Below, one piece after another: positions 1 to 306 of a stretch of DNA of 306 bases; the stretch's first letter is position 1; every line of letters begins with the position of its first letter. Under the pieces are notes generated by a model. That model did not search any database. It saw nothing but the letters and a program-made list of their open reading frames with translations, and was not told the origin of the DNA. The DNA is from Escherichia coli (lineage in GTDB: Bacteria > Pseudomonadota > Gammaproteobacteria > Enterobacterales > Enterobacteriaceae). The stretch is taken from assembly GCF_003334255.1 (NCBI RefSeq), contig NZ_QOWU01000269.1; one strand, written 5' to 3'. The position numbers were made by a program, and so were the translations under genes.

Positions 1-306
1 CGTCGCCTGTTCCGCTGTGTCTCCATCCGGGAAAACACGGACGGCACCTTTGCCATCACGGCGGTGCAGCACGTACCGGAAAAAGAAGCCATTGTGGATA
101 ACGGAGCCCGCTTTGAGCCGCAGTCAGGCACCCTGAACAGCGTTATCCCACCGGCAGTACAGCACCTGACGGTGGAGGTGAGCGCAGCTGACAGCCAGTA
201 TCTGGCGCTGGCGAAATGGGACACGCCGCGGGTGGTGAAGGGCGTGCGCTTCAGTCTGCGCCTGACCAGTGGAAGCGGTGAGAACAGCCGCCTGCTGACC
301 ACCGCC
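1..306 (+). CDS. J: Internal fragment of a phage tail-tip host specificity protein (lambda gpJ-like central tail fibre protein); partial at both ends
   Basis: Frame 1 on the + strand is open across all 102 codons. + frames 2 and 3 hit stops (TGA at 134-136 in frame 2; TAA at 99-101 in frame 3). Codon third positions are strongly G/C-biased with enterobacterial-style preferred codons (CTG, ACC, GCC, CGC, AAA, GAA). The translation contains motifs I recall from the lambda gpJ family (FRCVSIREN-DG-ITAVQHVPEKEAIVDNGA, PPAVQHLT, WDTP-VVKG). Family assignment is from memory, not from a search. Confidence 0.85.

Follow-up and report, generated by a model that had tools for sequence, protein, structure and literature searches.

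An internal segment of the J (TipJ) tail-tip gene of a lambda-like Escherichia coli prophage

The stretch of DNA analyzed here (306 bases in full, hereafter the window) is, with near certainty, an internal piece of the gene for J (TipJ), the tip attachment and host specificity protein, of a lambda-like siphophage prophage of E. coli. The gene is a known one, of a known family and in its usual context. The additions of the analysis are a measure of its divergence from lambda (about 70% identity) and a precise assignment to sub-domains.

Identity and coding frame of the segment

The window has a GC content of 63% and a GC3 of 75%. Frame +1 (bases 1-306) runs without a stop through all 102 codons and was translated into 102 residues. 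Three of the other five frames each contain at least three stops, the first reverse frame contains one, and the second reverse frame contains none. Residues 1-101 of the frame +1 product were aligned by phmmer with residues 568-670 of lambda gpJ (PDB 8iyk and 9e7m; E values of 3e-40 to 5e-40), and in NCBIfam the translation hit NF049904 (lambda_TipJ) over positions 568-670 of the profile, with an E value of 5.5e-55. In Pfam, residues 42-101 matched positions 1-60 of the 104 positions of Ig_J (PF24421; E 2.4e-19). Seven PHROG families, tail and central-fibre J families among them, matched the translation, including the following:

phrog_10903, unannotated family, best PHROG match, E 6e-62
phrog_2148, "tail fiber protein," E 2e-49
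phrog_1727, "tail protein and host specificity," E 1e-39
phrog_31, "central tail fiber J," E 4.3e-37

These matches bear out the first-pass annotation, which had placed the window inside a gpJ-like tail-tip gene. As the window comprises only 102 residues and scored 186 bits against NF049904, the curated whole-protein cut-off of that profile (1950 bits) is out of reach for the window alone. A full-length J that contains the window at 100% identity (18300-21827 in NZ_CP027340.1, hereafter L002) scored 2135.9 bits. That full-length homologue has the complete Pfam architecture of gpJ, in the domain order of lambda:

aa 86-207, FNIII-A_GpJ
aa 331-492, Phage-tail_3 (hub)
aa 609-712, Ig_J (FNIII-1)
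aa 714-816, Ig_J_second (FNIII-2)
aa 871-998, Phage_Tail_Tip (tail-tip fibre)

Codon alignments of the window with four relatives showed an excess of differences at third codon positions. The differences at positions 1, 2 and 3 numbered 18, 23 and 50 against lambda, 22, 21 and 59 against Gifsy-2, 15, 19 and 39 against Stx2c_PV98-693, and 4, 1 and 12 against Stx2_EH1904. Purifying selection acting on frame +1 leaves such an excess, and frame +1 is therefore the coding frame.

One frame on the minus strand is also free of stops over 101 codons (bases 1-305). If this frame made a protein, the other strand would be the coding one and the J-like frame would be incidental, a reading favored by the zero stop codons across the window. 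Against it, the antisense translation had no PHROG match at E <= 1, the substitution pattern tracks the codon positions of frame +1, and the J CDS lies on the plus strand at the window in all annotated records. Moreover, when the order of the codons in the window was shuffled, the antisense register stayed stop-free in 23% of 20,000 trials, so that its openness is accounted for by the composition of a GC3-rich gene of 63% GC. The lack of family matches, the shuffle rate and the substitution pattern led us to reject antisense coding, which we regard as exceedingly improbable, and frame +1 is retained as the coding frame of J.

The minus strand also carries a terminator-like hairpin at 57..40, with the stem GATGGCA/TGCCGTC followed by a T-rich stretch, CGTGTTTTCC. 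RNA folding gave it an energy of -12.2 kcal/mol and a z score of -2.8. The two arms lie over the conserved DGT(F/Y)AIT codons of J, and neither lambda nor Gifsy-2 retains the T-run; the hairpin is probably coincidental. It is very improbable that the antisense strand is functional, with a transcript or an overlapping gene ending within J, given that composition and the conserved J codons explain both the stop-free frame and the hairpin.

Rfam searches of both strands of the window gave no match at E <= 1, and a structured RNA was rejected. The window contains neither direct or inverted repeats of at least 10 nt nor sigma-70-like promoter sites. It holds no exact Chi site, and its two one-mismatch matches to Chi are within chance, as they were equalled in 26 of 200 shuffles.

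Position within J and proposed role of the segment

In L002, the window lies at 20001-20306 inside a gpJ CDS of 1176 codons (18300-21830), at an offset of 1701 (567 x 3) bases and thus exactly in register. In Escherichia phage PhiR5_1 and four further genomes with exact matches, it corresponds to residues 568-669 of a J of 1157 residues. This agrees with the claim made at first pass that the segment comes from the central part of J. By alignment, the window spans the end of HDIV, the linker and the first 60% of FNIII-1, with the following features:

1..306, plus strand: internal coding fragment of J (gpJ, TipJ), codons 568-669 of a gene of 1157 or 1176 codons, frame 1
1..33, plus strand: last two residues of the HDIV beta-sandwich (OB) insertion and strand beta25; aa 1-11, equivalent to lambda gpJ 568-578
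34..123, plus strand: C-terminal rest of HDIV and the long-loop/short-helix linker to FNIII-1; aa 12-41, equivalent to lambda about 579-609
124..306, plus strand: first 60 of the 104 positions of Ig_J (FNIII-1, Pfam PF24421); aa 42-102

The first of these boundaries follows the description of lambda gpJ, in which the beta-sandwich insertion of HDIV comprises residues 483-569 and strand beta25 comprises residues 570-578 (PMC10721106); aa 1-11 align without gaps to the J chain of 8iyk. No Pfam domain was found over bases 34..123 (aa 12-41), either in the window or in the full-length homologue, and a linker from the hub to FNIII-1 has been described for lambda gpJ (PMC10721106, PMC11101478). The Ig_J domain extends past the 3' end of the window.

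The protein is clearly diverged from that of lambda. Identity over the window was 70.2% at the amino acid level by tblastn, and 71.6% (amino acids) and 70.3% (nucleotides) over the ungapped columns of the codon alignment, with one gap of one residue and one of two residues relative to lambda gpJ. Divergence was uneven, with residues 568-605 89% identical to lambda and residues 609-669, the FNIII-1 part, 61% identical; the part made up of the linker and the HDIV remainder (bases 34..123) is the most conserved in the window. Full-length J variants were 61.5% and 65.2% identical to lambda J. Their identity drops sharply beyond residue 800 or so, and once more over approximately the final 180 residues. 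The receptor-binding region at the C terminus shares no more than 21-43% identity with that of lambda, so that the receptor need not be LamB. The earlier suggestion of a related but distinct lambdoid phage thus holds, at about 70% identity.

The match to lambda gpJ (PDB 8iyk, 8k35, 8xcg, 8xci and 9e7m) is collinear, with aa 1-102 of the window corresponding to lambda 568-670. Gene order (M-L-K-I-J-lom-stf-tfa) and Pfam domain order are the same in lambda as for the full-length homologue. The differences lie in sequence, with about 70% identity over the window at both amino acid and nucleotide levels, 61-65% over the full length and 21-43% in the C-terminal receptor-binding region.

The in situ structure of the lambda tail tip (PMC10721106) and its open and closed structures with LamB (PMC11101478) provide a model for the role of this segment. 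In lambda, receptor binding remodels the helical shaft beneath the FNIII domains; the three FNIII strings separate and swing perpendicular to the hub on an elongated linker, and the tube opens (PMC11101478). By homology, three copies of J would form the conical tail tip together with gpL, gpI and the C terminus of the tape measure. J would also extend the central fibre, and its C-terminal domain would bind an outer-membrane receptor. Upon receptor binding, the FNIII domains may dissociate and swing out on the linker, leaving the tube open for DNA exit. In the light of the lambda structures, the J trimer would act as tail tip and central fibre, in receptor binding and in the determination of host range. 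Since the window covers the HDIV end, the linker and the start of FNIII-1, we infer that it encodes part of the gate that closes and opens the tube and its hinge, and not the receptor-recognition surface. The role in receptor recognition put forward at first pass is therefore apt for the J protein and does not extend to the window segment, as specificity resides in the C-terminal domain.

A similar arrangement is found in the hub protein pb3 of phage T5, in which HDIV is followed by a linker and then by FNIII-1 and FNIII-2 (PMC10721106), and in an architecture of this kind FNIII-1 and FNIII-2 swing out when the tube opens (PMC11101478). T5 differs in that its FNIII pairs stand apart and form no closed cone, and in that the central fibre and the protein that binds the receptor are two distinct polypeptides (PMC10721106). 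No sequence match of the window to T5 pb3 was detected, and the relation is structural only.

Occurrence and gene neighborhood

The DNA matches to the window in phages and E. coli genomes go well beyond chance. Full-length matches were found by megablast in 149 phage records. The best was PhiR5_1 (99.7% nucleotide and 100% amino acid identity), a phage whose deposited genome record lists E. coli C as the host. It was followed at 94-98% nucleotide identity by the PhiR12 series, BP-4795, JLK-2012 and many Stx1a-, Stx2a- and Stx2c-converting phages. Where present, the annotation under these matches reads J, host specificity protein or tail fibre. Taken together, the J proteins of these phages are 94-99.7% identical in nucleotides and 92-100% in amino acids over the window. 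They have few point substitutions there, and their main differences lie outside, in the C-terminal modules. Of 5426 complete E. coli genomes, 1913 (35%) match the window, the median being 2 places per genome and the highest number 11. The matches occupy 6215 places, 6201 of which are chromosomal; 14 are plasmid borne. Seven complete E. coli chromosomes are 100% identical to the window in DNA, with J annotated throughout.

We examined the gene neighborhood in six contexts, namely PhiR5_1 (99.7%; hereafter L001) and five E. coli chromosomes that carry the window at 100% identity (L002 and L008 to L011). A tail module in the lambda order was present in all six. Upstream of J, every context has the tape measure gene (H), M, L, K (a C40 peptidase) and I. 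Downstream of J come Lom, a protein resembling Stf ("prophage tail fiber N-terminal domain") and a Tfa-like DUF4376 protein; lom is missing between J and the stf-like gene in L002 only. In L002, terminase, portal, protease, decoration, capsid and lysis genes are located farther upstream of the tail module, and the prophage end adjoins yecD/aspS. The right end of the prophage adjoins a truncated gene remnant, yecD and aspS in three contexts, whereas in two others the backbone is a different one and an S6 peptidase gene comes after it. As judged from these identical or near-identical DNA copies, the flanks of the window itself are most likely a lambda-type tail module. The surrounding tail morphogenesis module expected at first pass, with M, L, K and I upstream and lom and/or stf-tfa downstream, was thus found in 6/6 contexts, and the view that the family is well described and no novel system also stood, the gene being a known one in its usual context.

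Two features of these contexts lie outside the J gene. In the annotation of PhiR5_1, the tape measure gene (5131-7703 in L001) is divided into a CDS at 5131-7464 and an adjacent one at 7464-7703, unlike the single 2574-bp CDS of the prophage homologues. A frameshift, an error in the sequence or a split made during annotation could explain the division. In addition, every context contains, downstream of stf and tfa, a gene for a protein with a YadA C-terminal domain (trimeric-autotransporter-like adhesin). These prophages appear to carry the gene as cargo (a "moron"), with the following coordinates:

L002, 24999-26273
L008, 14305-15618
L009, 14559-15641
L011, 14304-15677
L001 (PhiR5_1), 17556-18629

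Instead of a functional tail gene, the source of the window might be a pseudogene of J or the remnant of a cryptic prophage in decay. Two points count for this, the copy number of the segment (up to 11 per E. coli genome, median 2) and the defective state of many lambdoid prophages of this species. However, J is full length and intact (1157 or 1176 residues) and accompanied by a complete tail module in 5/5 exact-match contexts, PhiR5_1, deposited as a phage genome with host E. coli C, has the identical peptide at the window, and the window shows no frame disruption. An origin from a remnant is therefore unlikely, though less so than antisense coding, and even if true it would leave the identity of the window as J unchanged.

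The same segment might instead belong to an F-type tailocin (phage-tail-like bacteriocin) or a gene transfer agent rather than a phage. The F2-pyocin tail fibre gave a weak match over aa 3-55 (E 0.0018), and RcGTA gp15 has the hub-domain organization in common (PMC10721106). The similarity to lambda J, however, is about 35 orders of magnitude above that to the pyocin protein, and the relatives at 94-100% nucleotide identity are all phage genomes or prophages with terminase, portal, capsid and lysis genes. We thus give a tailocin or gene transfer agent origin practically no weight and retain a lambda-like prophage as the source. Because distant homologues occur in phage-derived tailocins, the statement made at first pass that such genes occur essentially only in phages and prophages is correct in a broad sense and fails in a strict one, as the F2-pyocin tail fibre match (E 0.0018) illustrates.

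Modularity of the J distal end and value of the segment

Residues 1-870 of J are 95-100% identical among six close copies. Beyond this point, two types of J were distinguished:

1176-aa type: L002, 18300-21830
1157-aa type: L009, L008, L010 and L011, 7300-10773; L001, 10300-13773

Between the two types, residues 871-998 are 62% identical, and residues from 999 to the end about 24% identical. The C terminus of the 1176-aa type is 96% identical to that of the PhiR12 phages and about 31% identical to J ends of the lambda group, and the C terminus of the 1157-aa type is 43% identical to that of lambda. This is one J scaffold with two distal modules, a familiar mosaic exchange of receptor-binding ends, and the two types presumably use different receptors. 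A literature search for receptor data on the PhiR5/PhiR12 phage series found nothing usable.

Near-identical L-K-I-J segments also occur in two prophage backbones (L008 and L011 versus L002, L009 and L010). One backbone has lambda-like V, G, T and H genes and is integrated beside yecD/aspS. In the second backbone, which adjoins an S6-family (SPATE-like) peptidase gene, the major tail protein is a different one and the tape measure is longer. The presence of near-identical L-K-I-J in both is mosaic exchange of the tail-tip block.

As the segment, which belongs to the conserved hub-linker-FNIII-1 scaffold of J, is 100% identical in prophages with different receptor-binding ends and backbones, it holds no information on host range. 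The result has little weight beyond annotation, where it identifies the locus around the window as the tail module of an E. coli lambdoid prophage. The window is thus a marker of a "lambdoid tail tip," uninformative on host range or receptor, and lambdoid prophages with such a segment are very common in E. coli, often with several copies per genome.
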